A DNA stretch of 64,000 nucleotides from Candidatus Adlerbacteria bacterium (GTDB lineage: Bacteria > Patescibacteriota > Minisyncoccia > Phycocordibacterales > SBAW01), in assembly GCA_029288895.1 (NCBI GenBank), contig JARIGK010000001.1, positions 134,682 to 198,681 on the forward strand. The letters run 5' to 3'. Shown one piece after another: positions 40,863-57,094 of the stretch. Below the pieces are notes generated by a model. It saw nothing but the letters and a program-made list of their open reading frames with translations. It was not told where the DNA came from and did not search any database. How positions within the stretch are numbered: position 1 is the first letter of the stretch; each line of letters starts with the position of its first letter. Both the position numbers and the translations under genes were made by a program.

Positions 40863-41831
40863 ATGATCGTTCGTCTACTCGCTCTTGTGTGCGCGCTACT
40901 CGTTCCAGGGTTCGCGAATGCAGAGGTCTATCCGGCCAAGCCTGTGCGGCTTATCGTCGGCTTTCCGCCCGGAGGGCCAACTGATGTGCTTGCGCGAATC
41001 GTCGCCGAGAGTCTTTCGGCGAAGTTGGGTGTGCAGGTGCTTGTCGAGAACAAGCCCGGCGCTGGCACCATCCTTGCAATCAAAGAGGTGATTGCAGCGG
41101 CGCCCGACGGCTACACACTTTTGTTTGGCAGCCCGAACGTTGCCACCAACGAAACACTCTATCCAAATCGCGGGTACGAATTTCTGCAGAGTACTGAGCC
41201 TGTTGCGCTCGTTGCCCGAGGGCCAGTCGCATTGTATGTAAAGCGCGGCACTCCTGATGAGGATCGTTTCCAGACGTTGGATAGTCTTATCGGGTTCGCA
41301 AAGGCACATCCGTGGAGGCTCAACATGGCATCTCCGGGCAACGGCACAGCGAGCCATCTCATCGGCGAACTCTTCCAAATGCGGGCGGGCGTCACCATGA
41401 CGCACGTTCCGTACAAAGGCGGCAGCCAGGTGATGCCAGACTTGCTCGCAGGGAGGGTTAGCCTGACCTTTGATACGACGACGTTGGCGCTCCAGTATGT
41501 CCGTGATGGGCGTTTGCGCGCGCTTGGGGTTACAACCAAGCAACGCGTCAGCGTCTTGCCGGACACGCCCGCCATTGCCGAGGTCCTTCCTGGGTTCGAG
41601 GCAAGTAACTGGTGGGGCATTAGCGCGCCAAAAGGAACTCCAGCGTCGGTTGTCGCGCGGCTTAACAGTGCGATCAACAGTGTGCTCGGCGAACAGGAAA
41701 TGCAGAAGAAGCTCACTGAGTTGGGGCTTATCCCCGCGGGAGGCACGCCGTCTGAGTACGGCACCTTCATTGCGGCGGAGACGCTCAAGTGGGCGGACGT
41801 CATCCGCTACTCTGGAGCTACGCTCGATTAA
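40863..41831 (+). CDS. TctC/Bug-family tripartite tricarboxylate transporter substrate-binding protein (orphan)
   Basis: SD site GGAGGA upstream of the ATG at 40863. Signal peptide, PVRLIVGFPPGGPTDVLARIVAE, and the periplasmic binding fold. No tctA/tctB nearby. GC-rich codon usage. Confidence 0.7.
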   Translation: MIVRLLALVCALLVPGFANAEVYPAKPVRLIVGFPPGGPTDVLARIVAESLSAKLGVQVLVENKPGAGTILAIKEVIAAAPDGYTLLFGSPNVATNETLYPNRGYEFLQSTEPVALVARGPVALYVKRGTPDEDRFQTLDSLIGFAKAHPWRLNMASPGNGTASHLIGELFQMRAGVTMTHVPYKGGSQVMPDLLAGRVSLTFDTTTLALQYVRDGRLRALGVTTKQRVSVLPDTPAIAEVLPGFEASNWWGISAPKGTPASVVARLNSAINSVLGEQEMQKKLTELGLIPAGGTPSEYGTFIAAETLKWADVIRYSGATLD

Positions 41832-41845
41832 AAGACACACTACAA

Positions 41846-41882
41846 CGCCAGCTCCTCGCGAGCCGGCGTTTTTTCTTAGCAA
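41846..41882 (+). terminator. Intrinsic terminator
   Basis: CGCCAGCTC CTCGC GAGCCGGCG followed by TTTTTTCTT. Confidence 0.55.
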
Positions 41883-41987
41883 TTATTACGGTAATGGGCG
41901 TTTAGGAGTAGAATCTTTTTCTATTACCCGTTTGATAGTTTTCACGATGCAACATTGTATAAAAAGAAAAGCTGTCCCGGAGGACAG

Positions 41988-42359
41988 CTAGTGTAAACGA
42001 AACTGATGCTGTACAAATTTTAGCTCGGCTGGTCGGATCAACCGCGAATGCGCCACACTCACTTTGTGGAGTTTGCCATCCAAATTCTTCTCCCAGAATT
42101 CCAAAAACCCAGTAAGTTTTGGAAAGCGAGGATGAAGATCCGTGTCCTGCCAAACATAACTCTGCAGAATATGTTTATGGTCGGGCATCCAGTAGAGAAT
42201 TTCTGCTGTTGTAATTCCGAAGCCCTTAAACAGTTCTACGAAATCTTTTGAGACAGATGCAGGCATCGTATGTCCCTCGCTCGTTGCTCCCGCTATAAGT
42301 AAAGCGCCGAACCTGTTCATCGTCAAAACGATCCTGTGAACTGTGTGGCCCGTGTTCAT
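41988..42359 (-). CDS. Usg-like family protein (tentative)
   Basis: ITTAEILYWMPDHKHILQSYVWQDTDLHPRFPKLTGFLEFW...LHKVSVAHSRLI resembles the Usg-like domain. Start may be the internal ATG at 42266. Confidence 0.4.
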   Translation of the reverse strand: MNTGHTVHRIVLTMNRFGALLIAGATSEGHTMPASVSKDFVELFKGFGITTAEILYWMPDHKHILQSYVWQDTDLHPRFPKLTGFLEFWEKNLDGKLHKVSVAHSRLIRPAELKFVQHQFRLH

Positions 42360-42854: not shown

Positions 42855-43127
42855 TTAGGTGCGCCGGATAGGCTTGATGGTCACCCCCAAGCTTTGCAGG
42901 TGCTCAACCACACCTGCATCCTTGAGGATGCGGGCGTATGCGCCAGTGATGAAGTTGATCTTCGGCTGGTGTTGGACAAGGCCACCTTTCTCCTGCAGGA
43001 CTTCGTCCAGCTCCTCGGCAAGCTTTGTAGCTGTAGCCGCCAGCTGGATCAGCTCAGTGCGCATTCCCTCCGCTTTGCCGCGGATCGAGCGTTGCATCGG
43101 ATTAGTACCGTCGTTTCGACCGTTCAC
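42855..43127 (-). CDS. Small hypothetical protein (90 aa) with a consensus promoter, SD site and terminator
   Basis: GTG start preceded by AAGGAGA 8 nt upstream. Coiled-coil-like. Confidence 0.45.
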   Translation of the reverse strand: MNGRNDGTNPMQRSIRGKAEGMRTELIQLAATATKLAEELDEVLQEKGGLVQHQPKINFITGAYARILKDAGVVEHLQSLGVTIKPIRRT

Positions 43128-43158: not shown

Positions 43159-43187
43159 TATTGTAACCTAATATAAAATATTTGTCA
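43159..43187 (-). promoter_or_regulatory. Near-consensus sigma-70 promoter
   Basis: On the minus strand: TTGACA (43187-43182), 17-nt spacer, TACAAT (43164-43159). Confidence 0.5.
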
Positions 43188-43277
43188 AATTTGCCCACCT
43201 TAGTGGACGACTTTAGAACCATTGATTGGGTGAGAGAGTACCCTGCGCCTGCATTCACGCTGCGACAGGTGCAGGAG

Positions 43278-45065
43278 TTACTGAGGTAGTGTCTCCGTTG
43301 TATCGACGCTTTCTACTACAGCTGGAATTGGTTCAGGCAATTGGACACCATGCATCTTAACGCGTCGCGCATTCAATCGATTTTCTTGGCCAATTTGTAC
43401 TAAAGCTTTTGCAGCTCTCTCAGCAATGGTTTCCGTGTCATCTGCAGTCCTGTTGTTCAGACCACGAGCAGCACGAACAATGCGATGCATTCTATCGCCC
43501 TTTTCAGCCTTAAATATTCTGTAAAAATCTTCGACACTGAGCTTGCTTATTAATTCAGTATCTTCTGGATTCCAGCCATGTTTAATAATCATATCTTCTA
43601 ACACGTCAGCTGGGTTGCGGTCATCAACAAATCTGCTACGCGCTGCATCGAATGCCTGCGCAAGTTCCTCATCTCTTTCTCCATCGTCAAATAGACTTTG
43701 ACGTCCATCGAACAAATCTTTCTCGTCCCTGCGTTCTGTAACGTATTTGGTTATAAGCTCCGTTGCTTCCGTGTTTCTTCCAAACTCTTTGAGCAGCTTA
43801 ACTGTTGAGTTTAGATTGGAAGGGTGAAGGACTCCAATATTTTCCATCGACGCACTAAAAATTTTGTCCATCACTTCTTTTTCGTTATCGTCAAAAGAGC
43901 CGTGGTATGCAGTCCAAGCATCGTGTATATCCTGCTCTTGTTGGGCTTTGTTGGCCACCTTACTTTGCTTCTCAGCTGCCTTTAGGAGAGCTTCTTCATC
44001 AAAGATTCCACTCTGCACGGTCTTATGGATAGCCAAGTCAAAGTCATCAGCACTAAAAAATTTATACTTTGCCATCAACTCAGACCACTTCCTGTCCGTG
44101 TCTGGAATTTGGTTATTATTTCGCAACATACCATGCAGGCGCCCCATATCTGTTAAGAACTCGAATGGCGGCGGTTCGCCGTCCTTCTGATATTTTTCCC
44201 AACCGAATAGCGTTGCCGAGTGAAAGGCTTGGTAGAAAAGCTCTGAATAATCAGTTTGTAATATCCCTTCGAGTCGCGCGCAAATTCTCTCTATCTTTTT
44301 GAGTACTCTGATGTTGGTGATACCAAGAGTGACGCAAAAATCATGCAGCAGTTTTTTGTTACCCGTTGCATCTGCGTCAGGGAAAGCAATGTCCGCTGCT
44401 TCTTGAGGAGTCGGATCAAATTGCAGATGGGTATCAACGACCTTTTCAAGTTGTTTATGGAAAACTTCCTTTTGTCCATCCGCAATTTCTTCTTCGTTGA
44501 GCAAGAGAACAACTTTACACTTGCGTTGTTCTTTTAGCATGGATATAAGTCCGAATACTTCTATGACGTCCAATCCGTTCCCAGCTCTTTCAAGGTCGTC
44601 TATGCATATGATTTGTTCGCCCACAGAGTGAAAGAGAAGTTTTTCAGCTAGTGCAGTTCCGATGTAACTTTGGACTACGGGATTCTGACCCGCCTGCGTT
44701 AACAGCCACCGCACGGAAGAGCCGAGCGTGTCTCGTAAATTTTTCGGCTCCAAAGCTCCTAGTGTCCACTCCTCTCCGATTTTTTCAACGGGTTTTGTAG
44801 CTTCATAGATTGCGTAGCGCAAGTCGTCAATTTTCTTTACTCCAAATAACGATACATATGCGTAGCGCGTTAACTTAATCTTCCCAGCATCTTTTGCTTC
44901 TTTAAGAAAATAGTTCCAACCGTATGTTTTGCCAACGCCCCATTTGCCGCTAATACAAAGCACTTCAGGGTCGGCTCTTTCCAAAAAACGAGTTATTTCT
45001 GCTTTTACAAGTCGTATAGACACGCCCCTATTGTAGCGATAAAAGCTCATGTGAAAAGAGCTCAA
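43278..45065 (-). CDS. KAP-family P-loop NTPase (PifA-like)
   Basis: Walker A ISGKWGVGKT, KAP-type Walker B ICIDDLER, and a long alpha-helical C-terminal half; 595 aa. Confidence 0.8.
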   Translation of the reverse strand: MSSFHMSFYRYNRGVSIRLVKAEITRFLERADPEVLCISGKWGVGKTYGWNYFLKEAKDAGKIKLTRYAYVSLFGVKKIDDLRYAIYEATKPVEKIGEEWTLGALEPKNLRDTLGSSVRWLLTQAGQNPVVQSYIGTALAEKLLFHSVGEQIICIDDLERAGNGLDVIEVFGLISMLKEQRKCKVVLLLNEEEIADGQKEVFHKQLEKVVDTHLQFDPTPQEAADIAFPDADATGNKKLLHDFCVTLGITNIRVLKKIERICARLEGILQTDYSELFYQAFHSATLFGWEKYQKDGEPPPFEFLTDMGRLHGMLRNNNQIPDTDRKWSELMAKYKFFSADDFDLAIHKTVQSGIFDEEALLKAAEKQSKVANKAQQEQDIHDAWTAYHGSFDDNEKEVMDKIFSASMENIGVLHPSNLNSTVKLLKEFGRNTEATELITKYVTERRDEKDLFDGRQSLFDDGERDEELAQAFDAARSRFVDDRNPADVLEDMIIKHGWNPEDTELISKLSVEDFYRIFKAEKGDRMHRIVRAARGLNNRTADDTETIAERAAKALVQIGQENRLNARRVKMHGVQLPEPIPAVVESVDTTETLPQ

Positions 45066-45279
45066 ATGAGAAGAGTTCTTCAGAACAGCGCCGAGTGCTT
45101 CTGCAACACCTGTTCTTGAATCTCACATTGAAGGACAAACAGACGACCTACACGCTGAAAAGCCCATCGAGATACTTTCGATGAGGGTTCAAGAGAAGCT
45201 CGACGCCCAGAAAAACTTCGAACTCCAAAAAACGCCTAAAAGTAAGGCTCGTCTAGAATCTGTTTCGAAAATCGACCCT

Positions 45280-45322
45280 TTGCTCCGCGCGATAGAGGAT
45301 GTTCGAACCTGTATTGCGGTAA
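45280..45322. repeat. Direct repeat A (att-like): TTGCTCCGCG + GATAGAGGATGTTCGAACCTGT...
   Basis: The first 10 nt (45280-45289) match the tRNA-Asn 3' end and flank (53311-53320). Copy A aligns with copy B at about 79% identity. Confidence 0.5.
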
Positions 45323-45371
45323 CTATCTGACTCAAGTAAAGTGGCAGACGGCAGTTTTGAAGGAGACGACA

Positions 45372-45659
45372 ATGACCGTGTGGTTCCCGCGTTACTGGTG
45401 TATGGGGTGCGGAGCACGCTTCGTGTTGGAAGCCGATGCTCTTGAGACCAACCTGACTCCTGAAATCATCCTCTCAGCAATGAGTGCAGGGGAGGGTCCT
45501 TTCAAGCAGCTCAGGACGCATCATGACTGCGGCTTGCATAAAGCGCAAGAAGCAGGGAAGGCGTTGGGAGCTGGTGGGCCCGGGCTCTACTCTTCCAACT
45601 TCGAGCCTTATTGGGGCGAAGCGAAGTTCTGCGGTATGAAGAAGAAAGTTCCAACCTGA
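45372..45659 (+). CDS. Small CxxC protein, hypothetical
   Basis: SD site GGAGA upstream of the ATG at 45372. Begins MTVWFPRYWCMGCGARF. A terminator follows. Confidence 0.4.
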   Translation: MTVWFPRYWCMGCGARFVLEADALETNLTPEIILSAMSAGEGPFKQLRTHHDCGLHKAQEAGKALGAGGPGLYSSNFEPYWGEAKFCGMKKKVPT

Positions 45660-45688
45660 TGACATCCTGCGTTACGAATTTTAGAGGC

Positions 45689-45722
45689 CGCTATCCGCAA
45701 GGAGCGGCCTTTTCTTTTTTGT
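45689..45722 (+). terminator. Intrinsic terminator
   Basis: AGGCCGCT ATCCGCAAGG AGCGGCCT followed by TTTCTTTTTT. Confidence 0.5.
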
Positions 45723-45791
45723 CTAATTATAAAAGTTTTGATGTCCAATTGGGGTATCTAAAATACCCTTGCAAAATAATCTCCAAAAAAT

Positions 45792-45832
45792 GGCTCCGCC
45801 TGATAGAGGACGTTCGAACGTGTTTAAGGTAA
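45792..45832. repeat. Direct repeat B (att-like): GGCTCCGCCTGATAGAGGACGTTCGAACGTGT...
   Basis: About 79% identical to repeat A. Contains the perfect palindrome ACGTTCGAACGT. Confidence 0.5.
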
Positions 45833-45850
45833 AAACCTCCACTTTATGTT

Positions 45851-46645
45851 TCAGACATTTTTTGATAGATAATCTTTCATGACTGCTTTAGCGGCAAAGT
45901 CAAAAGCCGAAGCTGTTATAGGAAGCTTTGCGGCTGCTTTCGCAATATTTTTCCAATCCTCAGGCAGTTCTCCATTCCCAAGTTCTTCTTGGTAAGCAAG
46001 TAGCTGAACGACAAAATCATAATGGCCAGTACTCAAGGTCATGGCAAGCATTAATGCTTTGTGAATTTCTAGCTTCGGACCATAATTGAAATGATATTTA
46101 TTTCCTTTACCGCGGTATCCGTAAAGCTGTGAACCAAATGCGCTTGCGTGAGAACTTTTGCTCAATATTCTAAATGCCTTTTTGGCAGGTTTTCCTCCGT
46201 GAGCAACAATATCTCTTTCAATCGTTCCCTCACTGAAAGCATCCTTAAAAGCTGGATTTTTCTGATAATCATCCTCTGTTTCTTTGAGAAACAAATCACG
46301 AAGTTCTGGATGTGAAAAAAGATATATCAGCATTGATAAATCACTCATTATGCTTCTTACGATCACAAACGCATCTCCGTACAACCCTCTTTCCATAAGT
46401 ATCCTTATCGTTTCAAGATGTTGAATAGACCTGTTCACCAACATAAGTTGGATCGTTTTGAATTTCGCTTCTTCGGTGCCCGGAGTCTCTTTTACTTCAT
46501 TAATCAGTAATGCGACTGCATCTTTCAGAACCCCTAGACCTTCCCAATAAATGGGATAAAGCAGACTGAGAGTCATTTTTGTGCTCTCTTTAATTTCTAG
46601 TTCCAGCGTTTCAAAGTCTCGTCTTCCTTCCACTGGTTTAGACAT
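45851..46645 (-). CDS. Hypothetical protein (third gene of the LexA-like / Y-family-polymerase operon)
   Basis: 264 aa, alpha-helical. Ends 32 bp downstream of the polymerase gene. Confidence 0.4.
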   Translation of the reverse strand: MSKPVEGRRDFETLELEIKESTKMTLSLLYPIYWEGLGVLKDAVALLINEVKETPGTEEAKFKTIQLMLVNRSIQHLETIRILMERGLYGDAFVIVRSIMSDLSMLIYLFSHPELRDLFLKETEDDYQKNPAFKDAFSEGTIERDIVAHGGKPAKKAFRILSKSSHASAFGSQLYGYRGKGNKYHFNYGPKLEIHKALMLAMTLSTGHYDFVVQLLAYQEELGNGELPEDWKNIAKAAAKLPITASAFDFAAKAVMKDYLSKNV

Positions 46646-46677
46646 ATTTATGTAGATCCTAGCATGTTTAAGAGCGA

Positions 46678-47982
46678 TTATTTAACCTCACCAAGCATCG
46701 GTATTCCTATGCGTTGACGTCTATTTTCACCTTTGAATAGTTTAGATGTGCGACCTGGGGCATCGCCTCGTTCGTTTGTGTGAGCGCCCCGCTTCATGGC
46801 TTTCATAGTGGAACCTAGGTAGACAGTGTGTTTGCCGAACTTACTGTCCATTGCATCAACTGCCGCATAGACGGGCTTCCATTTAATAATCTCAGATACT
46901 GCCCCAAATAAGTCCATCTGTATTTCTTTATTGTGCTCAAGCCCCATCAATACAACGCCAGTAGCACGGTAGGGTGTGCGAGGGCGATACACCTTATCAA
47001 ACGACTCACGCACAAGGCGAATAAACTCGTTAGGTAATGATTGAGGAGTGGCAAGTGTTAATTCAAGTCCTGAATAGCGAAACTCTTGAGTCTTAAGAAA
47101 GAAGAATATCTTCTTAGGCGCAAGCTCATACCGACGCGCCTTGATACAGGCATTTTCAATATTCTTTGAGAGTTGGGAGAACACGAACTCTTTGTCAGCA
47201 GATGCAGGAGTAAATGTTTTGGTTTTACTTATGCTCTGGTAGTCGTGCTTTTCCTCAGTTGTGAGGGGGTACACAAACTCTCCACGTAGCTCGTGCCATA
47301 TCTCGCGATACGGTTTGCTCATGTTCGCGTCTATCCACTCAACGGGCTTTTGAGCGTATTGGAGAGATGTCTGAATGCCGTGTTGTTTCAAGAAAGCAGA
47401 TGTCTGTGGGCCAATGCCCCAGATTTTATCTATCGGGAGTTTGCTTAAGTACGTCTCTACTCTGTTTGCAGGGATAATAGTCAGCCCCGATGGTTTCTTC
47501 CACTTGGAACCTACCTTTGCAAGCACCTTATTTGGTGCGAGGCCGATAGAAAAGGTCATTCCAAGTTCTGTGTCCAAGTCGTGCTTTATGGCCTCTGCTA
47601 TGGCCTCATATGACATCCTGAGAGACCTGCGCATGCCTGTTAAATCAGCAAAGCATTCATCAATACTGTATTCCTCAACAGCCTCTGTATATCGCCTCAC
47701 AATGGCGTACATACGCTTAGAGAAGAGACTGTAGGTCTCGTAGTCAGAAGGGAGAATGATGACCTCGGGGCATATCTTTTTAATCTCTCGCAGAGACATG
47801 CCACGCTTCACGCCCATAGCCTTCAGCTCGTAGCTCATGGAAGATGCGATGCCGCGTTCTTTGCCAGTAACCACAGGTTTGCCTTTAAGTGCTGGGTTTA
47901 CGGCGGCTTCGCATGACGCAAAGAACGAGTCCCCATCAATATGTATTATTGCGCGGGGGAATGAGCGGATAGAGAGCGGCAT
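46678..47982 (-). CDS. Y-family DNA polymerase (UmuC/DinB-like)
   Basis: HIDGDSFFASCE (Y-family motif I), SIDECFADLTG, and little-finger region; 434 aa. Confidence 0.85.
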   Translation of the reverse strand: MPLSIRSFPRAIIHIDGDSFFASCEAAVNPALKGKPVVTGKERGIASSMSYELKAMGVKRGMSLREIKKICPEVIILPSDYETYSLFSKRMYAIVRRYTEAVEEYSIDECFADLTGMRRSLRMSYEAIAEAIKHDLDTELGMTFSIGLAPNKVLAKVGSKWKKPSGLTIIPANRVETYLSKLPIDKIWGIGPQTSAFLKQHGIQTSLQYAQKPVEWIDANMSKPYREIWHELRGEFVYPLTTEEKHDYQSISKTKTFTPASADKEFVFSQLSKNIENACIKARRYELAPKKIFFFLKTQEFRYSGLELTLATPQSLPNEFIRLVRESFDKVYRPRTPYRATGVVLMGLEHNKEIQMDLFGAVSEIIKWKPVYAAVDAMDSKFGKHTVYLGSTMKAMKRGAHTNERGDAPGRTSKLFKGENRRQRIGIPMLGEVK

Positions 47983-47983
47983 A

Positions 47984-48544
47984 TCAGTATTTACGGATTA
48001 CAGCTTGTACAACAGCTTCTATTGTGAGTTCGTTCTCAGGATAAATATCTTTGAATTTTTTATTTGCCGCTTGGAGAAATACTTTGTTTCCTTCCTTGCG
48101 GTAGTACTTCATAGTGTACTCGCCGTCTACTTGGGCAATGACAATCTGCCCTGGCTTTGGGGTTTTACCACGTTCAACCAGCACCATATCTCCCTCCATA
48201 ATTCCTGCATCAATCATTGAGTCACCTTTAACTTTGAGCATAAAAGTTGCCTCTTTATTTTTTATCAAGTATTCATCCAAGCTCATCGTGTCCACCAACT
48301 CTTCTTCAGCAGGGGAAGGGAAGCCTGCTTCTACTGTGCCAAGAAGAGAGACAGTATTTAGAAGATCGCGAGGGATGAGTTTACCTTTCTTGTCTTTGCT
48401 AACAACTCCAGAATCTATGAGTTTTTGAACTGCATATTGGGTTGCGCCCTTGCTTTTATATCCAAGCAGCAGAGACAACTCGCTGTATGAGGGCATACGA
48501 CGATGTTTTTTGTAGAAGGAAAAGAGTTTGCTTTGAGGCGTCAT
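47984..48544 (-). CDS. LexA/UmuD-like S24 peptidase with an N-terminal wHTH
   Basis: N-terminal DNA-binding domain. GDSM Ser nucleophile and a downstream Lys (MKYYRKEG). Ends 2 bp before the polymerase gene. Confidence 0.75.
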   Translation of the reverse strand: MTPQSKLFSFYKKHRRMPSYSELSLLLGYKSKGATQYAVQKLIDSGVVSKDKKGKLIPRDLLNTVSLLGTVEAGFPSPAEEELVDTMSLDEYLIKNKEATFMLKVKGDSMIDAGIMEGDMVLVERGKTPKPGQIVIAQVDGEYTMKYYRKEGNKVFLQAANKKFKDIYPENELTIEAVVQAVIRKY

Positions 48545-48601
48545 CCCCTCAGTATATTAGTACGTTCGTACTAGTGTCAAACTCAGCTTATCTTAGCGTT
48601 T

Positions 48602-49606
48602 TTACCAGAACTTGAGCCAATTAAAGATGCTTTGCCATATAGGTCTTTTTGGAAATCCAGGTATTGTCGTTGTGGTAGAATTTTTAACCGCCGACACTGC
48701 TGAGGTACTGACAGAGCTAGATGCAGATTTCTTTATGGAACCAGCTGAAAAATCTTTTAATTGTGAAGGCGCTTTAATCGTTGGCGGCGGTGTTGAGACG
48801 GGTAAAGTCACTGATTGGGAACCTTCCTCGACACAGGTCGTTTGATCTGCGTTGAGTTCGTACCCTTCAGCGCAACTACATAGATTCTGGCCCGCAACAA
48901 TCCCATGCGGACCTAGCTTTTGATTACAAAGTTCGATGGGGTCTGGGCCGGAAGGAACACAGGATGTCTTGCTGGAGTCCATCTTATAACCCTGATCGCA
49001 GTAGCAGCCAGCCCCTGTATTGGTGGAATTTGGTGGACATGAGGATGTGGGCACAGGTTGTGTGACAGCTTTTATCTGCGAGGAATATTGTTTATAAAAA
49101 TTTGCTTGTTGTTGGAGAAATTCCGTATCTCCTAAGGCATAGCATTCTGTGTACGCTTGGTTAGAAGCAACTCTGTAGTTGCCAAGGGCGATTTGCATAA
49201 TACTTGAAAGCTTTAAAGCATCAATTGCTTTTTGACGGTCGCAAAAAGATTGAGTATCTCCTTGGCAGGGAACGTAATAAGAAGCAATAACCGCATCTGC
49301 TGCATCTCGAGCTTTATTTGCCAAGCTATCGAGATTATATTTTGCATTTATAGATTGAAATTCGCTGGCAGTGCAAAGATGCAGCGAGTCGGTACATTCG
49401 TTGGTACTCCAATACGAAACAGTGCTATCAGCCCAGCCATCATTACAAATTACGCTTCCATCCCAATCTGATCCCGCCCTACAATTCACTCCGCCGTGGT
49501 AAGAGCAGGCTCCAGAAGTTGCGAAGGTATGATTTGAAAAACTTAAAAAAAAGAGTGCCAGAAATAGTCCCGTAAAGACTGCTTTTCTCATTCTGCAATA
49601 GTGCAT
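48602..49606 (-). CDS. Secreted cysteine-rich protein (EGF-like Cys spacing), hypothetical
   Basis: Signal peptide. More than 20 Cys in repeated CxxxC / CxC contexts, with a C-terminal S/T-rich tail. Confidence 0.45.
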   Translation of the reverse strand: MHYCRMRKAVFTGLFLALFFLSFSNHTFATSGACSYHGGVNCRAGSDWDGSVICNDGWADSTVSYWSTNECTDSLHLCTASEFQSINAKYNLDSLANKARDAADAVIASYYVPCQGDTQSFCDRQKAIDALKLSSIMQIALGNYRVASNQAYTECYALGDTEFLQQQANFYKQYSSQIKAVTQPVPTSSCPPNSTNTGAGCYCDQGYKMDSSKTSCVPSGPDPIELCNQKLGPHGIVAGQNLCSCAEGYELNADQTTCVEEGSQSVTLPVSTPPPTIKAPSQLKDFSAGSIKKSASSSVSTSAVSAVKNSTTTTIPGFPKRPIWQSIFNWLKFW

Positions 49607-49680
49607 GTTCTCTTCACAAAAGTACAGGGACTCAAGTGAATACTCGAAATCATCCTTTTATTGGGCTATATTAACGACAA

Positions 49681-50592
49681 ATGAGTATGAGATGGCCTAA
49701 AAAAAGGAGGACGGCATATTCTGTAACATCTCAGGCAAAAAATCATTTCTTTTCTTATATAGACAGCCTTAAGGTGAGAACTTTGATCGATGAGTTAAGA
49801 AGGGAGTTTGGCATTCCAAAAAATGGGTTCAGACATAGACCCAAAAAAGAAAATTCAGAAAGAAGGCCTTATTATCCCGATGAATACTGCATATATGTCT
49901 CTCCCTCGGGAGTTCTTTCGCCAGAACAAAGAAGGCTTTATAAGTTGATGAATGAAAAAGAAAAGGTGCTGGAAAAAGCCCTTGATAAATTAATGGAGAA
50001 ATTTGAGATTTGGCCCCATGATTTCTGGAGGAACGTTTTCTCTATCTATTTATTTCATGGTGAAGTTCCTGAAAAGTACTTCAAATACAGTTATACAAAA
50101 GAATTTTCGCCTGGTGGATTAATTCCGGACATTTGTTATGTCTATCCTCTTAACGATAGATTGCTCATAGAACTGAGAGATTGGGAGAAGCTAGGCGAAG
50201 ACGATGAAGTCAAAGTTTGGTACTTCGACGCCTTAAAAGAAGTTGCTCACAAATACCCTGTAGGGATTTTATTGTCACCATACATATCACTGACTCAGCT
50301 AAAAGCCTACATTTCTAAACAGTGGCCGGTAATTGAACGACAGCTAGATAATGCGTATATGCAGAAAGCATATGCAGACAATGAGGTCTTACAAAATTGG
50401 TCATTAGGTCGCACAAAACCGCGTGTTCTTCGGGAAAGAGATTCTTTCATAATGAAGTTACATCTCGAAGGTAAAGATCGAAAAACTATACTAGCAAGGG
50501 TGGTGAAGCGCTACGGAAAAAGAAATATGGATGCAAATTATATAAGCACAATTATTGCTCGAGAAAAGAAACACAACAGCGACCGTTCATAG
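49681..50592 (+). CDS. Hypothetical protein (island cargo)
   Basis: 303 aa, basic N-terminus, AT-rich codon usage unlike the core genes. Confidence 0.4.
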   Translation: MSMRWPKKRRTAYSVTSQAKNHFFSYIDSLKVRTLIDELRREFGIPKNGFRHRPKKENSERRPYYPDEYCIYVSPSGVLSPEQRRLYKLMNEKEKVLEKALDKLMEKFEIWPHDFWRNVFSIYLFHGEVPEKYFKYSYTKEFSPGGLIPDICYVYPLNDRLLIELRDWEKLGEDDEVKVWYFDALKEVAHKYPVGILLSPYISLTQLKAYISKQWPVIERQLDNAYMQKAYADNEVLQNWSLGRTKPRVLRERDSFIMKLHLEGKDRKTILARVVKRYGKRNMDANYISTIIAREKKHNSDRS

Positions 50593-50637
50593 TTATTGTT
50601 GTCGCCATAGAGGGTTCGCTGGGAATATAGTTTTCCC

Positions 50638-50898
50638 ATGCTGAATGAAAATGACCTGTTCGAAACCAGCGATCTGCCACTCGTAGCAGCTCTCCTTTCG
50701 CATGGGGCAAAGATTGAGTTTCTGGAGCGAAATGGTGGCCCACGGGTCAGCTTCTATTTCCGCCGAGAACGGGCTCTAGATAAGCTCGTAGAGGCCTTTT
50801 GGGCGCACTCACTTACAGTTGAGCCACTCCAGTATTTTAATGCCTTGAAAGAAGCGAAAACGCGCCTTTATGGTGTGCCTATAATCTATGGAAATTAG
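50638..50898 (+). CDS. DUF5659-like small protein
   Basis: LFETSDLPLVAALLSHGAKIEFLERNG...FYFRRERALDKLVEAFW...ALKEAKTRLYG fits the DUF5659 pattern. Confidence 0.45.
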   Translation: MLNENDLFETSDLPLVAALLSHGAKIEFLERNGGPRVSFYFRRERALDKLVEAFWAHSLTVEPLQYFNALKEAKTRLYGVPIIYGN

Positions 50899-51039
50899 CC
50901 TGGAAAAACTAGAGGAATTTATAGCTCTATATCGCCAGGAATATGGATTGGATCTAACTCCGGCTGAAGCTCTGGAGCAGGCAATTCCTTTAATTTTACT
51001 CGTGCAAATTGTTAAGAATTGATAAGTTCCGAATGAAAA

Positions 51040-51522
51040 ATGAATATGGAACCGATTAAAAACTTTGTACCTTTCCCTCGTCGAATCTTAAGCGACGTTC
51101 TTAATGGACGCATGAGTGGTCCAGAGTTTTTTGTATATGCGTGGATACGTGGCAAGGGCAATCCTTATGCAGTTTCCCAAGTATCAATCCCGGAAATTAG
51201 GGCTGCCTACCCTGGCACAGTCAGCGACAATCATATCTATAAACTCATTCGCTCCTTACGAAAGAAGAAGTACCTTTACTACCCGGACCGTGCTGGACGT
51301 AGAGGTTCGTTCGAGGTGCATATGGGCGAATGGACACTACCTGACGGGAGTTTTAAGACTCTGGAAAGATTCTTTGTGCAGCAAACAGTCAGAACTTCAC
51401 AACCGGCGTCACCTCCAGTTCGCCCAGAGGTTAGGGATGAAAACAAAGACGTTAATCAGGGGTTCGAAATGATGAAAAAACATATGGCAGAACGTTTTAA
51501 ACTACCTCCTTCGAATGAATGA
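51040..51522 (+). CDS. Hypothetical protein (possible DNA-binding/replication function)
   Basis: 160 aa, basic. Confidence 0.35.
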   Translation: MNMEPIKNFVPFPRRILSDVLNGRMSGPEFFVYAWIRGKGNPYAVSQVSIPEIRAAYPGTVSDNHIYKLIRSLRKKKYLYYPDRAGRRGSFEVHMGEWTLPDGSFKTLERFFVQQTVRTSQPASPPVRPEVRDENKDVNQGFEMMKKHMAERFKLPPSNE

Positions 51523-51737
51523 ATCAGAGCTTACTAGAATGAGAATAAGAAAAAGAAAAATATATCTTTGTCGAACTTATTCGCCTCTTTTTGGCTTTGA
51601 TTCTTTGATTAAATATCAAAATAATCAAAATTTATTCCGCCATGGAATTATCGGACATTATGGGAGGCTTTTTGACACTATAAAAAGGGATTTTTGGGAG
51701 CAGTACGCGCGTAGAAGCGAGAGATATACTTAACGTT

Positions 51738-53352
51738 ATGGAAGGTGCCAAGAAATACATTTTGTACGCTCGTAAAAGCTCCGAGTCTGAAGATAGACAA
51801 ATGGCCTCGATTGATTCTCAGGTACAAGAGCTTCAAAAACTCGCTGCAGAGCTTCGTTTAGAGGTCGTAGACGTGCTTTCGGAGTCTCAGTCTGCCAAAG
51901 CTCCGGGCAGGCCTGTTTTTAATACCCTGCTCGCTCGGATTCAGGCTGGAGAGGCCGATGGCATCCTTTGTTGGAAGATTAATCGTCTGGCTCGTAACCC
52001 GATAGATGGCGGACAGATAAGCTGGTTGCTCCAGGGCGGAACGCTGAAGCATATACAGACCTTTGGTCGAGGCTATTACTCCACCGACAATGTCATCATG
52101 ATGGCGGTGGAGCTTGGTATGGCGAACCAGTTTATCCGTGACCTAAGTACTGACACAAAGCGTGGATTGAAAGCCAAGGCAGAGCGCGGCTGGTATCCAA
52201 CTTTTGCTTCCATCGGGTATATGCACAATCCTTATAAACACAAAGGGCAAAAAGAAATAATCGAGGATCCAGAACGTTTTGATTTGGTGCGGAAGATGTT
52301 CGACTTTATGCTCACGGGCAACTACACTCCGCCCAAGATTTTAGAGCTGGCCAACGATCAGTGGGGTCTTCGAACTCGCCAGGGCAATAAAATAGCTCGA
52401 AGTAATATCTACCGTATTTTTTCTGATCCCTTCTACTACGGCGAATTTGAGTACCCCAAAGGCAGCGGTAACTGGCACAAAGGACAGCACAAAGCGATGA
52501 TAACAAGGCAGGAGTTCGACCGAATCCAGTTTTTTGATTGGACGCAAGGATTCAATACGACCCAAGACCTATGAATTTGATTTCAGAGGACCAATCCACT
52601 GTGGTGAGTGCGGAGCAATGATCACCGCAGAACATAAACTCAAGCGCCAGAAGAATGGGCTGGTTCGAAGCTATATTTATTACCACTGCACAAAACGCAA
52701 ACAGATTGCCTGCTCCCAGCCGTCAATCGAAGAAAAAGAGCTAAATCGGCAGATATCTGAAATCGTTGGAAGATTGGAAATACCCGAATCGTTTTATAAG
52801 TGGGCCATGGACATCCTTAGAGAACAAAACGCAGTGGAGTCCAAGGGCAGAGAGCAGATCGTCGCCCGACAAAGAAAAGAATACGATTTAGTAATGGAGA
52901 AAATAGATCGACTGATCGATCTGAGGTCTGCAGGGGAAATCACGGCAGATGAGTTTGCGGACAGGAAGCGCTTTTTAAACGGTGAAAAAAGCGCTCTGGA
53001 GGCTCTCTTGGCCACGACAGCCGCCGGGGTCAGTGAGTGGCTAGACACCGTCGATAAGTATTTTTCATTTGCTGAAAGTGCCAAGCGCGCGTTCGATCAC
53101 GGCACTCTGGAGATAAAACGGGAGATTTTAGGGGCTCTTGGTTCGAACCTTCTTTTGAAAGATAGGAAATTGAGCGTCAGTCTCGCTAAACCTCTGACTC
53201 TTATCGAAACGGTAGCTTCTGAAGCTCGCACTATTAGCCAAATGTTCGAACCTCTAGACACCGTTGTTAAACAACGTGATATCAGACAAATCTACTCTGA
53301 AAATCCTAACTTGCTCCGCGACCAGGACTCGAACCTGGAACCAACTCCTTAA
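51738..53352 (+). pseudogene. Large serine recombinase (integrase), disrupted by a +1/-1 frameshift in a T6 run
   Basis: ORF1 (51738-52574) is the resolvase catalytic domain (YARKSSESEDRQ) plus recombinase domain. ORF2 (52534-53352) is the zinc ribbon (CGECGAM...C) plus coiled-coil. Deleting one T at 52530-52535 fuses them. The 3' end overlaps tRNA-Asn by 39 nt. Confidence 0.8.
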
Positions 53353-53385
53353 CAGGGAGCTGCTCTACCATTGAGCTATCGCGGA
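53314..53385 (-). tRNA. tRNA-Asn (anticodon GTT)
   Basis: Cloverleaf folded by hand: 7-bp acceptor stem UCCGCGA/UCGCGGA, D-arm GCUC/GAGC, anticodon loop CUGUUAA, variable loop UGGUU, T-arm CCAGG-UUCGAGU-CCUGG, discriminator G. CCA is not encoded. Confidence 0.85.
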
Positions 53386-53591
53386 ATGTTTTTGACCGCT
53401 TGCGCGGCTGTGAGAAATATAGCGTATTTAGGGCAAGAAGAAAACCCTCCCTGCGCGGTTGAGGGTGTGGGGTACATTTCTAACCGCTGCCTACGCGGGA
53501 TTTCTGTTTTTCAATTTATATAAATTTTATAACTATTTGATGCACTATCTGCTAGGGTCAAAAAAGAGGGAATACGGGAAAGCGAGGGGGA

Positions 53592-53813
53592 ATGAATGCG
53601 GAAAAACTGCTTGAGTTCTATCGCTATCAAGAAAAGTTTTATTCGAGTAAAATCGAAGAAACGCGCGCCATAGCGAAGGACGCCCATACTGCAGTAGTTA
53701 AAAGAGGATGGGAGGTGTTGATCCAGCATTGGGAGCGCATGCATACAAACGCTCAGGCCCAGATCTGTGCATTAGAAAAACAGATAGAGGACCAACGCCA
53801 CAGTAGGCAGTAG
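53592..53813 (+). CDS. Small hypothetical protein
   Basis: 73 aa with SD-like GAGGGGGAATG upstream. Confidence 0.3.
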   Translation: MNAEKLLEFYRYQEKFYSSKIEETRAIAKDAHTAVVKRGWEVLIQHWERMHTNAQAQICALEKQIEDQRHSRQ

Positions 53814-53849
53814 GTCCTCTTTTTCTGTCTCACGTTGTGTGTTGTTTTT

Positions 53850-54527
53850 TTACTGCACAACTATTGTTGCCGTTGCAGTGTCGCCGCCAGTGCCAAGGAA
53901 GGTGTAGGTGTACGTGCCGGGGATGCTCGGGAGGCGGACGCTGCCTGTCGAGAAGTTGCCGCCGCCATCTGCGTGTGCGTGTGCCACCTGCATACCACTC
54001 ATCATAACCATGACATCTTCTTCAGCCATAAAGTTGTGACCGCCGAAATCAATTTGGTCGCCCGCTGCTTTCATCATGCCCTGTTGGTCGATGTGCGCGA
54101 CGCCCATCATTGGTGGAGTTGTGGTGCCGCCGTCTGGCATTGTAGTGGTACCCATGCCAAGGAGGTAATGGATAAACCATTCAAGTTGCGAGGTGAAGTT
54201 GGGGAAGGTAGGTTCGAGCCCACGCAATGCACTGATAAACGAATTCAAGTCGCCGGACGTTGGCGGAGTTGTAGTGCCTGTGGTGCTTGTGCCTGTTGAT
54301 GTGCTAAAAACAGTGCCCGTGAGCATACCTTGGAGCATGCTGCTTGTTGTGGACGACGTTGTTGTTGCAGTTGTCGATGTTGCTGTTGCAGATGATGCGT
54401 CAATAACAGTCCCTGTTAATGTGTTCGATGTCGAAGTGGCTTGTTGTGCATGAGCGAGCGCAGTAGTGCTACCAATACCAATAATGAGCGCCGCACTCAT
54501 GAGCCACAGTATGTTCTGTGCTCTCAT
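53850..54527 (-). CDS. Secreted Ser/Thr-rich protein, hypothetical
   Basis: Signal peptide (MRAQNILWLMSAALIIGIGSTTALAHA), T/S-rich linkers, and a Met/His-rich segment. Confidence 0.45.
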   Translation of the reverse strand: MRAQNILWLMSAALIIGIGSTTALAHAQQATSTSNTLTGTVIDASSATATSTTATTTSSTTSSMLQGMLTGTVFSTSTGTSTTGTTTPPTSGDLNSFISALRGLEPTFPNFTSQLEWFIHYLLGMGTTTMPDGGTTTPPMMGVAHIDQQGMMKAAGDQIDFGGHNFMAEEDVMVMMSGMQVAHAHADGGGNFSTGSVRLPSIPGTYTYTFLGTGGDTATATIVVQ

Positions 54528-54675
54528 CGAACAACTCTACGCCTCGCGTAGTAAATGGTGGGTGAACCCATGCGCACAAAGTTGCTTTTTTTCAAAAGTA
54601 ATGTAGAGTTTTGGGCGGATAGACTCCCGCGGTGCGTATGTGTCGCCGTGCAATCTGGGTGAGGGAATACATACT

Positions 54676-55443
54676 ATGTGGACCTTTTTCAAAGCGTTTG
54701 GCGCTCTTCTGGCGTTCAAATACTTAGTGTTTTGGATGGAAACGAAGTATCACTTCGTGGCCAACTTCATCGCGAACTCGCAGGGTATCATCGCGCAGAA
54801 GGTGCCGTCCGTCCTAGGGCTTCCTGTCACTGCGATGTCTGTCGCGTTTGCGGCCAGTATCGTCGTGGCAGTGGTCTGCTCGATCAGGTGGCCAATGCTT
54901 ATGCCAGCACTTATCGTCATGAGTGTTGTCGAATTGCTGGCGTTCTTTCCGCAGATCAACCAGCACTTCGACAATCCGCAGACGGCGTTCTGGTCTCTGA
55001 ACGGCGCGATCTCAATCGTGGTCTCGGCGTTCCTGCTCGACCGCCGCGAGATGTGGCACGTCTATAGCTTCTGGCGAGTGGTTTCCAAACTGGTCTTGCC
55101 GGTTGCTTTCGTCGCGATCAACTTCGCGCTGTCTCTGATCTATGCCAACGTCGCGTTCAACGATAAGCGCTTCTGGATCTCGGGTCTGCTTATCGTGGCC
55201 TCCTGCACGACGGTGTTCTTCACCAGCCTTCTGGGCCTCGAAGATCTGGCGTTCTCGATCCGTAACGCGAGGCGCCTGCCCAAGATCGAGGATGATCTGA
55301 AGAAAGCCAACGAGGAAGTCGTCCGTCTGCAAGGGTTGGTCTCCAAGCCGACGCTTGTTCCTGAAACGCCGGCTCCTCCGGCAGCTCCTACCACTCCAAC
55401 TCATTTGAAGGCCGTTACAATCGAACGGGCGCGGGCGAGTTAA
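54676..55443 (+). CDS. Hypothetical polytopic membrane protein with a coiled-coil / Pro-rich tail
   Basis: SD site GAGGGA upstream of the ATG at 54676. About six TM helices. Confidence 0.45.
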   Translation: MWTFFKAFGALLAFKYLVFWMETKYHFVANFIANSQGIIAQKVPSVLGLPVTAMSVAFAASIVVAVVCSIRWPMLMPALIVMSVVELLAFFPQINQHFDNPQTAFWSLNGAISIVVSAFLLDRREMWHVYSFWRVVSKLVLPVAFVAINFALSLIYANVAFNDKRFWISGLLIVASCTTVFFTSLLGLEDLAFSIRNARRLPKIEDDLKKANEEVVRLQGLVSKPTLVPETPAPPAAPTTPTHLKAVTIERARAS

Positions 55444-55472
55444 TCTCAAGCTCGAGTCGATTTTTCTGCCTT

Positions 55473-55510
55473 GGCCGGACCCTTCACGGGGCCCGGCCTT
55501 TTTCTTTTTT
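55473..55510 (+). terminator. Intrinsic terminator
   Basis: GGCCGGACCC TTCAC GGGGCCCGGCC followed by TTTTTCTTTTTT. Confidence 0.6.
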
Positions 55511-55604
55511 CAAAAGCTTGCAAAATTTAATAGTTGTGGTATTAAATATATTGTTGAGTTCTCTATAGTAGAAGCCCAAAAAGGGCAGAAAGGCAGAGTG
55601 AAAA

Positions 55605-56351
55605 GTGACAGATGCAACCGTGCCGGGCGCCAAAGAGGCCCCGGCTGCTACGCCGCTCCCGAAGGTTCTTCGGGAGAAGAAGGTCATCGAATTCGTGCAT
55701 TGCTATTCGCACGGGCTCGCGATCTACTACTGGCCGCTGTTCGTCGTGCCGCTGATTATGGGCGTGCTCGTCCATTTCGGCGTCGTCGGCGGCAAGGCCG
55801 CATGCTGGACGGTGATTTTTGCCTACTACCTGGTCGGCAACGTCGCCTTCGACCTCTCAAGGACGGCCGCTTTCGCGCTTGGCGCGTTGGTGTTCGGTCT
55901 TGTGATGGCCGCGCTCTTCGCCCAGGCGCAGTGGCAGATCCCGTTCTTCCACTGGCTCGGCGTCCAGCTCTCGTCCATTCCGATGGATTGGACATTGGAG
56001 GTGCAGGGTATTTTCTTCACCCTCGCGGCGATCTTCTTCGGCCTCTGGTGCTACGAAATCGTGGATTCCATCACGGACGGCAAGTGGGTGTTCTCGCGCA
56101 ACGAGTTCGTCCACGATCAGTGGGGTCGTCGTGACAAGAGCCTGGCTCGCGGCCAGTGCACCGTCACGGTCTCGACGCCCGATCGCTTCAAGTGGCTTCT
56201 CGGCTTGGGCGGCGCCCAGATCGAGATCCATGCTGCGGAGGACAACAACCGCGTCCATGCGATCATCCCGAATGTGATCTTCGGCGCCCGCAAGGGCCGG
56301 CAGATCCATGCACTACTGCAAGCGTTGCAGGTGGTCAAGCTCTCATCGTAG
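55605..56351 (+). CDS. Hypothetical membrane protein (4 TM + soluble C-terminal domain)
   Basis: GTG start. GC3-rich codon usage. Confidence 0.4.
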   Translation: MTDATVPGAKEAPAATPLPKVLREKKVIEFVHCYSHGLAIYYWPLFVVPLIMGVLVHFGVVGGKAACWTVIFAYYLVGNVAFDLSRTAAFALGALVFGLVMAALFAQAQWQIPFFHWLGVQLSSIPMDWTLEVQGIFFTLAAIFFGLWCYEIVDSITDGKWVFSRNEFVHDQWGRRDKSLARGQCTVTVSTPDRFKWLLGLGGAQIEIHAAEDNNRVHAIIPNVIFGARKGRQIHALLQALQVVKLSS

Positions 56352-56373
56352 GGCTTCGGCGCACAAACATAGA

Positions 56374-56408
56374 GCCGGTATCCCACAAGGATGCCGGTTT
56401 TTCTTTTT
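56374..56408 (+). terminator. Intrinsic terminator
   Basis: CCGGTATCC CACAA GGATGCCGG followed by TTTTTCTTTTTC. Confidence 0.5.
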
Positions 56409-56470
56409 CTATACATGATCTTGACAAAAGGGGATAGATAGTTGCATAGTATTCTCAGGAGGACATAGAT

Positions 56471-56650
56471 ATGCTCAAAAAGGTCTCGGAGTTTCTGCTC
56501 AAATGCTTGGGCAAGCTCGCGCTTTCGACCATGGTCATCGGGCTCTGTTTCCTGGTCGCCGTGGTGTTTTCAATGATCGGCGCTTCAATTGAATCGCTTG
56601 GCCACACCATCGAACACGCGGCCCAGCAATTTGAAGTGGGCACGCACTGA
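56471..56650 (+). CDS. Small membrane protein (59 aa), hypothetical
   Basis: SD site AGGAGGA 7 nt upstream of the ATG. One TM helix. Below the ORF-track cutoff. Confidence 0.35.
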   Translation: MLKKVSEFLLKCLGKLALSTMVIGLCFLVAVVFSMIGASIESLGHTIEHAAQQFEVGTH

Positions 56651-56662
56651 AGGGAGAAGGAC

Positions 56663-56971
56663 ATGGTTTCTGCAATCCGCAGATGGTATCTGTATGATCG
56701 ACGCAACGCCAGGCAGGGCATCTTCTTAATGGTGGCGACCGCGCTTTGTTTGGGTGGTGCGTACATGTTGCCACGCCCAGAAGAGACGGGGCCGCTGCCC
56801 GAGCCGACGACGTCCAGTTGGACCATCAAGTGTTATGAGGCGAGGAGCCTCGAGGTGGATCAGCTGATGCGCAAAATCGCGCAGTCGCAGACCATGCGGG
56901 GGTATAGATACCTCGGCAATGGCTATGGCTGCAATGATGCGCACGCCGTGGCGGAGTACATCATCGATTAG
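56663..56971 (+). CDS. Small membrane-anchored protein (102 aa), hypothetical
   Basis: SD site GGGAGAAGG upstream of the ATG at 56663. One TM helix. Confidence 0.4.
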   Translation: MVSAIRRWYLYDRRNARQGIFLMVATALCLGGAYMLPRPEETGPLPEPTTSSWTIKCYEARSLEVDQLMRKIAQSQTMRGYRYLGNGYGCNDAHAVAEYIID

Positions 56972-57094
56972 CTGGGCAACCAGCGCAAACAAAAGGCTCA
57001 GGCGAAATCCTGGCCTTTTATTTTTTCAGTACCCTTGACTATTTTAATTTTTAAAGTATAAATACATCGGAAACTTTCACAAGGAGGAACAGCC

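Follow-up and report, generated by a model that had tools for sequence, protein, structure and literature searches.

We analysed a stretch of 64,000 nucleotides (nt) from contig JARIGK010000001.1 of Candidatus Adlerbacteria bacterium, referred to here as the window, in which horizontally acquired DNA was inserted at the 3' end of a tRNA-Asn(GTT) gene by a large serine recombinase (LSR). Positions 43191-53313 (~10.1 kb) very probably hold a tandem array of three integrative elements, which we call X, Y, and Z. Element Z is the youngest and the sole near-complete member (7.5-8.0 kb), and X and Y are older and degraded. The reading frame of the recombinase spans its own attachment (att) site: the integrated, tRNA-proximal copy ends in antisense tRNA codons, and at every left junction the DNA to the right of the shared core encodes a conserved native recombinase tail with the motif [VIF]RT. 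The insertion at tRNA-Asn by an LSR had already been proposed in the original prediction and was supported here; its extent and its mechanism are revised below. The features on which the argument depends are as follows.

43191-43289, plus strand: J0, the outermost attL and left end of the island; TTGC, then a P' arm encoding the long tail LPTLVDDFRTIDWVREYPAPAFTLRQVQELLR and a stop
45020-45289, plus strand: decayed 3' end of an older LSR (element X), approximately residues 450-527, with an internal frameshift
45280-45330, plus strand: J1, the border of remnant X and the next element; decamer TTGCTCCGCG and a P' arm encoding LLRAIEDVRTCIAVTI and a stop
45791-45832, plus strand: J2, the second short-type junction; TGGCTCCGCC and a P' arm encoding WLRLIEDVRTCLR and a stop
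51738-53352, plus strand: LSR of element Z, its frame interrupted within the T6 run at 52530-52535
53290-53340, no strand assigned: attR; LSR 3' end (P arm), core TTGCTCCGCG at 53311-53320, and tRNA acceptor/T arm (B' arm)
53313-53385, minus strand: tRNA-Asn(GTT), called by ARAGORN; the integration target and a host gene

Junctions and composition of the probable array

The left boundary of an element is marked by an in-frame native LSR tail with [VIF]RT, which follows straight after the LLR codons. We searched for such tails with hidden Markov models (HMMs) built from independent homologs, with the window sequence excluded. The related loci (L numbers) used in this study comprise 80 from GTDB species genomes, 80 from JGI/ENA metagenome contigs, and four (L001, L002, L083, and L084) obtained by exact protein look-up. 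An HMM of 17 independent short tails ranked J1 (45070-45327, E=6.9e-4) and J2 (45542-45829, E=7.8e-4) as the best two of the 2096 six-frame segments of the window. An HMM of the long tail type (L023, L033, and P0047) had one significant match in the six-frame window, at J0 (43167-43286, E=6.9e-9). The nucleotide pattern CTCC-N7-16-GTTMGAAC occurred three times in the window against 0.15 expected, with two of the occurrences at 45283 and 45794, and the P' arms of J2 and J1 agreed at 22 of 26 positions. J2 is most likely the attL of element Z.

The DNA to the left of J1 carries the remains of another recombinase gene. The second and third best of the 2096 segments for an HMM of the LSR C-terminus (last 98 residues, 14 homologs) precede J1 at 45020-45181 (E=0.0073) and 45070-45327 (E=0.21) and are colinear across a frameshift. 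The remnant was also the best non-self match in the window (45118-45311, E=0.014) for an nhmmer profile of 19 independent tRNA-Asn loci, and tblastn agreed. No LSR remnant was found to the left of J0, where the DNA is host intergenic sequence instead.

Element X thus comprises a long-type P' arm, a KAP NTPase gene, and ~270 nt of LSR 3' end. Element Y is a remnant of ~0.5 kb holding a 100-aa open reading frame (ORF). Element Z spans 45794-53313 (7.5 kb), or 45283-53313 if Y is included.

Base composition steps at 43.19 kb and 53.3 kb. The GC fraction was 0.529 for 1-43190, 0.446 for 43191-45289, 0.494 for 45290-45793, 0.436 for 45794-53313, and 0.530 for 53386-64000. The expected shift in codon usage was also present: the mean GC content at third codon positions (GC3) was 0.434 in the genes of the island and 0.633 in those of the flanks. 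The low-GC tract, however, starts at ~43.2 kb and not at 45.28 kb as had been proposed. The GC3 step coincides with J0: the 90-aa gene on its left (42855-43127) has a host-like GC3 of 0.69, and the KAP gene on its right has 0.41.

The palindrome GTTCGAAC, which resembles the tRNA T-loop region, occurred six times in the window (45301, 45812, 53141, 53244, 11302, and 39914) against 1.36 expected. Four of the six copies are in LSR 3' coding or junction DNA, where they form codons of the invariant LGSNL and FEPL motifs and of the VRT tail. These copies could be accessory LSR binding sites or a trace of the origin of the att site.

The recombinase of element Z and the state of the array

The recombinase gene of element Z matched the domains of an LSR, as had been predicted. 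The first ORF (51738-52574) contains Pfam Resolvase (E=6e-19, residues 8-151) and Recombinase (PF07508, E=8e-9) domains, and the second (52534-53352) contains Zn_ribbon_recom (PF13408, E=1.9e-8). For the coiled coil that LSRs carry within the zinc ribbon, where it controls directionality, the one candidate was a sub-threshold SHOCT match (residues 122-146 of the second ORF). The protein fell below the curated cut-offs of all named NCBIfam LSR equivalogs, XisF and CcrA/B/C included; scores for the CcrA, CcrB, and CcrC models were 59-77 bits against cut-offs of 700-900. Residues Y10, R12, S14, S15, R20, and Q21 were invariant in a 15-sequence alignment that included the window protein, and one of the N-terminal serines is the probable nucleophile. 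The overlap with the 3' end of the tRNA was confirmed, with the stop codon at 53352 lying 40 nt inside the tRNA gene on the opposite strand and the last 10 codons (DQDSNLEPTP) being antisense tRNA. The recombinase is not, however, one ORF as the original prediction had implied.

The two ORFs are joined when one T is deleted from the T6 run, which gives a 537-aa protein; otherwise a +1 change of reading frame is needed. The best 120 of more than 4000 database homologs (504-579 aa) shared 57-79% identity with this protein over 97-100% of its length, and the few named ones among them bear the labels Patescibacteria, Minisyncoccia, Nomurabacteria, or Aerophobetes. As it stands, the frameshift parts the catalytic and recombinase half from the DNA-binding half with the zinc ribbon and putative coiled coil. 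Programmed frameshifting at TTTTTTG was considered and rejected on inspection of the sequence, as the shift needed is +1 and not -1. A T6 run is also too short for typical transcriptional slippage.

With its recombinase gene frameshifted, element Z may have lost the ability to move by itself. We put at about even the chances that the LSR is a true pseudogene and that the whole array is immobile, vertically inherited, and eroding, which would be compatible with the array having originated as in our best explanation. The separation of the LSR domains by the T6 frameshift and the clear degradation of X and Y are what would be expected of such a fossil. The long core genes of the window each appear as a single long ORF in a mechanical ORF list, which makes widespread homopolymer error unlikely; the probability of a true inactivating mutation is for this reason no lower than that of an error in sequencing. 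A single homopolymer miscall is nonetheless possible, and the frameshift aside, the LSR keeps all columns that are invariant in the 15-sequence alignment. The composition of the array is not ameliorated, and a related LSR could act on it in trans.

A recombinase family that ends in tRNA genes

We then considered how far the arrangement at tRNA-Asn is shared by related recombinases. In 159 loci the match reached the LSR C-terminal region; in 24 of these the contig ended within 75 nt of the match, leaving 135 informative loci. The LSR stop codon was inside a convergent tRNA gene in 87 of the 135, with a median overlap of 42 nt. A further nine had a tRNA-antisense tail but no tRNA called by ARAGORN, 25 had a conserved native tail, and 14 could not be classified. 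The tRNAs were of 14 types (34 Asn, 22 His, 6 Gln, 5 Gly, and ten others). Since the loci contain only 197 tRNA genes in 2.26 Mb, or about one per 11 kb, the association between LSR and tRNA is far beyond chance. The clade is very large; it is common in Patescibacteria and occurs also in metagenome-assembled genomes labelled Omnitrophota, Elusimicrobiota, and other phyla.

The two kinds of C-terminus are distinct. In the tRNA-associated homologs, endings such as …LLR-DQDSNLEPTP, -RQDSNLRPID, and -GRDSNPRPIG are the antisense of the acceptor and T arms. In LSRs without an adjacent tRNA, the same (L/W)L(R) position is followed by a tail with [VIF]RT, either of a short type (LLRGLYEVRTAIK…, LLRWVEDVRTSCRE…, LLRLLDDVRTCLMG…) or of a longer type (LAWRDAFRTYDW…P.PE…RQV.ELL). 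The enzyme with the native tail would read …LLRLIEDVRTCLR, and that with the integrated tail …LLRDQDSNLEPTP. The proteins P0024 and P0039, judged by eye to be close throughout, have the endings RRQDSNLRPID and RWVEDVRTSCRETVTYSI, respectively. The arginine codon of the RT motif varies among CGA, AGA, and CGT, which argues that the tail is conserved as protein and not merely as a DNA site.

Arrays of two LSRs ending at tRNA-Asn were found in L001, L028, L029, L033, and L044, and in all five the distal LSR has a native-type tail and the proximal LSR a tRNA-antisense tail. Locus L083 has two tandem LSRs on a contig without a tRNA.

Two further observations concern the loci outside the 87. The tRNA-Asn gene of L001 (11622-11842, minus strand), which adjoins the closest LSR homolog, has an intron of group I in its anticodon loop (Rfam RF00028, 72.9 bits, E=9.5e-19), and ARAGORN misses this tRNA because of the interruption. 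The eight other loci with a tRNA-antisense LSR tail but no tRNA call may resemble this case. The 24 of 159 contigs that break near the LSR end include L006, L017, L025, L030, L041, L046, L051, L055, L087, L093, and L097. Such breaks would fit population heterogeneity, either between occupied and empty tRNA sites or between alternative neighbours.

Attachment site and proposed mechanism

The position of the crossover was approached by aligning the junctions on a shared GC, on which attR reads …CTTGCTCCGCGACCAGG, J1 …TTTGCTCCGCGCGATAG, J2 …ATGGCTCCGCCTGATAG, and J0 …TTTGCCCACCTTAGTGG. J0, the sole junction with host DNA on its left, reads TTGCCCACC and not TTGCTCCGC, and the acceptor sequence CTCCGC is absent from it. 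This places the probable crossover within or beside TTGC (53311-53314 at attR), at or just past the discriminator base, unless three of five positions in J0 have changed by mutation and its tail has nevertheless been conserved. The distance from the anchor C to the start of TCGAACC is 16 nt in the tRNA arm, whereas it is 21 nt in each of the seven P' arms examined. A 5-nt offset of the zinc-ribbon motif between attB and attP is a prediction of the half-site model for the Listeria A118 integrase, and the TCGAACC offset matches it.

A mechanism consistent with these junctions can be proposed. The attP site would lie within the last 15-35 codons of the LSR gene, with the native tail encoded by its far arm, P'. 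The enzyme would pair attP with an attB whose two sides are the tRNA trailer and the acceptor/T arm. The cut would fall at the discriminator base, in a central dinucleotide that is part of TTGC or adjoins it, so that the tRNA body would be left intact. After integration the P' arm would end up at the opposite (left) end of the element. Integration would thereby swap the native C-terminal tail of the enzyme for a tRNA-antisense tail, and excision would restore the native one. Later arrivals would insert at the same tRNA, pushing the earlier elements outward.

The swap of tails might itself be functional. By analogy with integration-dependent immunity in mycobacteriophages, it could be a built-in sensor of the integration state that alters the activity, stability, or directionality of the enzyme, which would then exist in two forms: a free form with the [VIF]RT tail and an integrated form with the tRNA-antisense tail. 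We regard this idea as tentative and rather unlikely.

Several points weigh against the array or against the mechanism proposed for it. The crossover position depends on one junction, J0, being undecayed. The att sites of LSRs are typically some 40-50 bp long, with imperfect dyad symmetry about a 2-bp crossover; the reconstructed attP has no significant dyad symmetry (5-6 of 26 positions, p=0.6-0.8), nor has the reconstructed attB (5 of 26), and an inverted repeat seen by eye (ATCCT/AGGAT) is not taken as evidence. LSRs normally recombine attP with attB alone, and the formation of an array would take recombination of attP with attR or attL. Upstream of J2, the C-terminal HMM detected no LSR remnant at the protein level and there was only a weak DNA alignment; for this reason Y may belong to Z, or J2 may have arisen from J1 by local duplication. 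Neither an empty site nor a circular form nor a reconstituted attP was recovered among the related loci, and circular (attP-form) contigs sought among 166 loci by terminal repeats were not found. In L001, the nearest relative with synteny, a related LSR with other cargo sits at the same tRNA, and no relatives came up when metagenomes were scanned with the 90-aa protein of the left flank. Finally, DUF5659 and the 160-aa gene that accompany the LSR had no informative family or fold match, and no recombination directionality factor was identified.

Extent of the insertion and the target tRNA

The original prediction was of a single 8.1-kb island at 45280-53385, bounded by a 10-bp direct repeat, which had integrated inside the tRNA and supplied it with a new 3' end, the mode known from tyrosine-integrase islands. 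The decamer TTGCTCCGCG does occur at both ends of that segment (45280 and 53311) and nowhere else in the window, and 45280 is a real junction. The repeat itself, however, is at chance level. Two or more matches were found in 8 of 100 shuffles, and many further 10-mers from around the tRNA are likewise repeated in the window. Across 44 loci, the longest direct match to the tRNA 3' end in the 10 kb upstream of the LSR averaged 9.8 nt, against 9.1 nt for an inverted control. We therefore rejected the repeat as boundary evidence; it is the tail-coding P' arm that marks the boundary at 45280. Long direct tRNA-3' repeats were likewise rejected as a feature of the family, since among the 44 loci they were conspicuous in just two, L011 (16 nt) and L034 (22 nt). 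The upstream repeats in these two loci are in keeping with integration inside the tRNA.

The exact repeats lie ~9-10 kb upstream of the tRNA (1172-1187 and 11565-11580 in L011; 2692-2713 and 11596-11617 in L034). They may be displaced tRNA fragments from another mode of integration, or remnants of another integrase.

Other observations also disagree with a single island. There are three attL-type junctions (43191, 45280, and 45791) and not one, and the LSR remnant and low-GC cargo extend to the left of 45280 as far as J0. A Pfam scan found no tyrosine integrase. J0 lacks the acceptor sequence, and at none of the junctions could a displaced piece of the tRNA 3' end be recognised that goes beyond the 6-7 nt in common with the core. 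The tRNA gene, which was predicted on the minus strand and recovered there by ARAGORN as the single tRNA of the whole window, argues in the same direction. At acceptor pair 7:66 the window has A-T, where L001 and L002 have G-C; at pair 4:69 the window and L001 have G-C and L002 has A-T. The 3' strand of the acceptor stem, which is inside the LSR ORF, thus covaries with the host-side 5' strand in these three sequences, and the tRNA body for this reason looks host-derived. The tRNA body is probably host DNA, with the trailer alone replaced, and the claim that the element rebuilds the tRNA 3' end is not borne out. In sum, we consider the single island improbable and retain the array of three elements.

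Core and cargo genes of the elements

The genes of the three elements are listed below.

43278-45065, minus strand: KAP-family P-loop NTPase (Pfam KAP_NTPase), cargo of degraded X, GC3 0.41
45357-45659, plus strand: 100-aa ORF in Y, no Pfam, PHROG, or PADLOC match
45851-46645, minus strand: DUF5677 protein (Pfam PF18928), cargo of Z, GC3 0.33
46678-47982, minus strand: Y-family (DinB/UmuC-like) DNA polymerase (Pfam IMS, IMS_HHH, and IMS_C; PHROG 1268), cargo of Z
47984-48544, minus strand: LexA/UmuD-like S24 autoprotease (Pfam Peptidase_S24) with an N-terminal DNA-binding region
48602-49606, minus strand: Cys-rich secreted protein with a cEGF-like repeat (Pfam) and a signal-like N-terminus visible in the translation, cargo of Z
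49681-50592, plus strand: 303-aa protein, cargo of Z, no family match (Pfam, PHROG, PADLOC) and no homolog in related loci
50638-50898, plus strand: DUF5659 protein, 86 aa (Pfam PF18903), partner gene of the LSR family
51040-51522, plus strand: 160-aa protein, tblastn matches upstream of the LSR in L001 (68% identity), L005, L026, L083, and L084

The DUF5659 gene was present as predicted but is not cargo. Its homologs were found in 26 loci, in most of which they are 0.7-4.5 kb upstream of the LSR and co-oriented with it, and an identical 86-aa protein (P0121) is on record in NCBI sequence. DUF5659 and the LSR are common to the window, L001, and L002, the 160-aa gene is shared with L001 only, and everything else differs. 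DUF5659, the 160-aa gene, and the LSR thus appear to make up the core of the element. An AlphaFold2 model of DUF5659 (pLDDT 80) had no PDB fold match at E<0.001. Both DUF5659 and the 160-aa protein are candidates for a directionality factor or regulator.

Among the cargo, the predicted pairing of a LexA/UmuD-like protein with a Y-family polymerase was confirmed by the Peptidase_S24 and IMS domains, as was the Cys-rich secreted protein. The S24 protein scored above the cut-offs of both the LexA model TIGR00498 (126.7 vs. 110.95) and the UmuD model PRK10276 (120.7 vs. 110), and the polymerase scored below the curated cut-offs of the NCBIfam Pol IV and UmuC models. The stop codon of the S24 gene abuts the start of the polymerase gene, so that the pair has a umuDC-type arrangement of S24 subunit and Y-family polymerase. 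No homologs of the Z cargo proteins were found in other loci, save one S24 homolog in L028. The KAP NTPase of element X, possibly an anti-phage gene of the older element, matched PHROG 4740 (E=3e-62) and, in PADLOC, PDC-S49 (E=2.6e-28), a candidate defence family. The 100-aa ORF in Y has a host-like GC of 0.55 and GC3 of 0.63, unlike the rest of the island.

We find it hardly likely that the insertion is a small temperate phage or satellite prophage with the LexA-like protein as its SOS-responsive repressor: S24 repressors govern induction in many prophages, the S24 protein here has hits to PHROG 4 (transcriptional repressor) and to a CI-like PHROG as well, the relative L084 has Rad52, RuvC, PD-(D/E)XK, and HTH genes beside its LSR, and element sizes of 5-10 kb fit satellites, but no capsid, tail, terminase, portal, morphogenesis, or other virion structural or packaging gene was found by PHROG or Pfam, PHROG matches fell on cargo alone and on no core gene, megablast against 50,697 phage records gave no match, only two partial matches were found among 2.9 million IMG/VR contigs, and the S24 protein forms a umuDC-like pair with the polymerase and has a UmuD-like PHROG as its best match. 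Because virion genes and phage DNA matches are lacking and the family is nearly absent from IMG/VR, we regard the elements of the array as integrative and non-viral, and give satellites a small remaining probability.

Host DNA around the array

The DNA to the left of J0 is AT-rich and intergenic, and a promoter-like site within it forms the host (B) arm that touches J0.

43160-43188, minus strand: promoter-like site (TTGACA, 17-nt spacer, TACAAT), 11 of 12 consensus positions matched

This site is the predicted promoter of the 90-aa gene. Farther to the left (39895-42359) are genes for an inositol monophosphatase, a TctC-family receptor, and a Usg-like protein. On the right flank, fmt, def, murA, mreB, and holB are syntenic with L001, which also speaks for a host origin of the tRNA. 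These genes (fmt and holB being short) and the LSR relatives point to Patescibacteria.

Comparison with known systems and significance

The recombinase has the domain order of the phiC31, Bxb1, Listeria A118/LI, and TP901-1 integrases, namely Resolvase, Recombinase, and a zinc ribbon, here with a putative coiled-coil region. Like those phage-type serine integrases, it is encoded at the end of its element, and its sites share a short core. In contrast to them, its targets are tRNA 3' ends, its att site is inside its own reading frame, and dyad symmetry of attP is not detectable.

SCCmec cassettes are inserted by LSRs (CcrA/B/C) at the 3' end of rlmH (orfX), which is kept, and they form tandem composites with short repeats. 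The elements described here resemble them in that an LSR places them at the extreme 3' end of a conserved housekeeping gene, which is left intact, and in forming tandem composites. They differ in that the enzyme is not a Ccr by NCBIfam scores, one recombinase is present in place of a CcrAB pair, the target is a tRNA gene, and the hosts belong to other phyla.

Insertion at a tRNA 3' end, an adjacent integrase, deviant composition, and tandem arrays are also features of tyrosine-integrase islands at tRNA genes (P4-like; PMC7192596). The enzyme family and chemistry are different here, there is no long direct repeat, and the tRNA 3' segment is apparently not replaced. The closest parallel to the change of tail is integration-dependent immunity in mycobacteriophages, in which attP is inside the repressor gene and integration alters the C-terminus of the protein; in some of these phages, residues are added from bacterial sequence at an attB that overlaps a tRNA gene (PMC8092301). 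Both systems would thus have attP in a coding sequence and a C-terminus that changes on integration. In mycobacteriophages, however, the split gene encodes the repressor, the enzyme is a tyrosine recombinase, and loss of a degradation tag has been demonstrated, whereas here the split gene would be that of the serine integrase itself and the consequence is a prediction.

Serine integrases that target tRNA genes made up 14 of 297 cases in the TIGER/Islander survey by Mageeney et al., who remarked that such use had 'not been reported previously' and is in need of proof (PMC7192596). In the full-text literature, with few subscription journals covered, we found no account of tRNA-targeting serine integrases in Patescibacteria and none of an attP within a serine integrase gene. 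To our knowledge, serine integrases are generally thought to avoid tRNA genes. The 87 of 135 family loci in which the recombinase ends in a tRNA would overturn this generalisation for a whole bacterial superphylum.

As a genomic island, the insertion at tRNA-Asn is ordinary; as a representative of a large family of tRNA-targeting serine integrases with an attP embedded in the ORF, it is of more interest. For the genome itself, the LexA-like protein and translesion polymerase are to be viewed as imported cargo in a decaying array and not as core SOS machinery. Serine integrases are the main tools for the insertion of large DNA cargo, and this family could supply landing sites in organisms without genetic tools, including Patescibacteria. 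It would also provide a natural series of enzymes whose specificity tracks tRNA identities, from which the reading of DNA by the zinc-ribbon and recombinase domains could be learned, and an attP inside the integrase frame leads to a directly testable hypothesis on how integration may be sensed.

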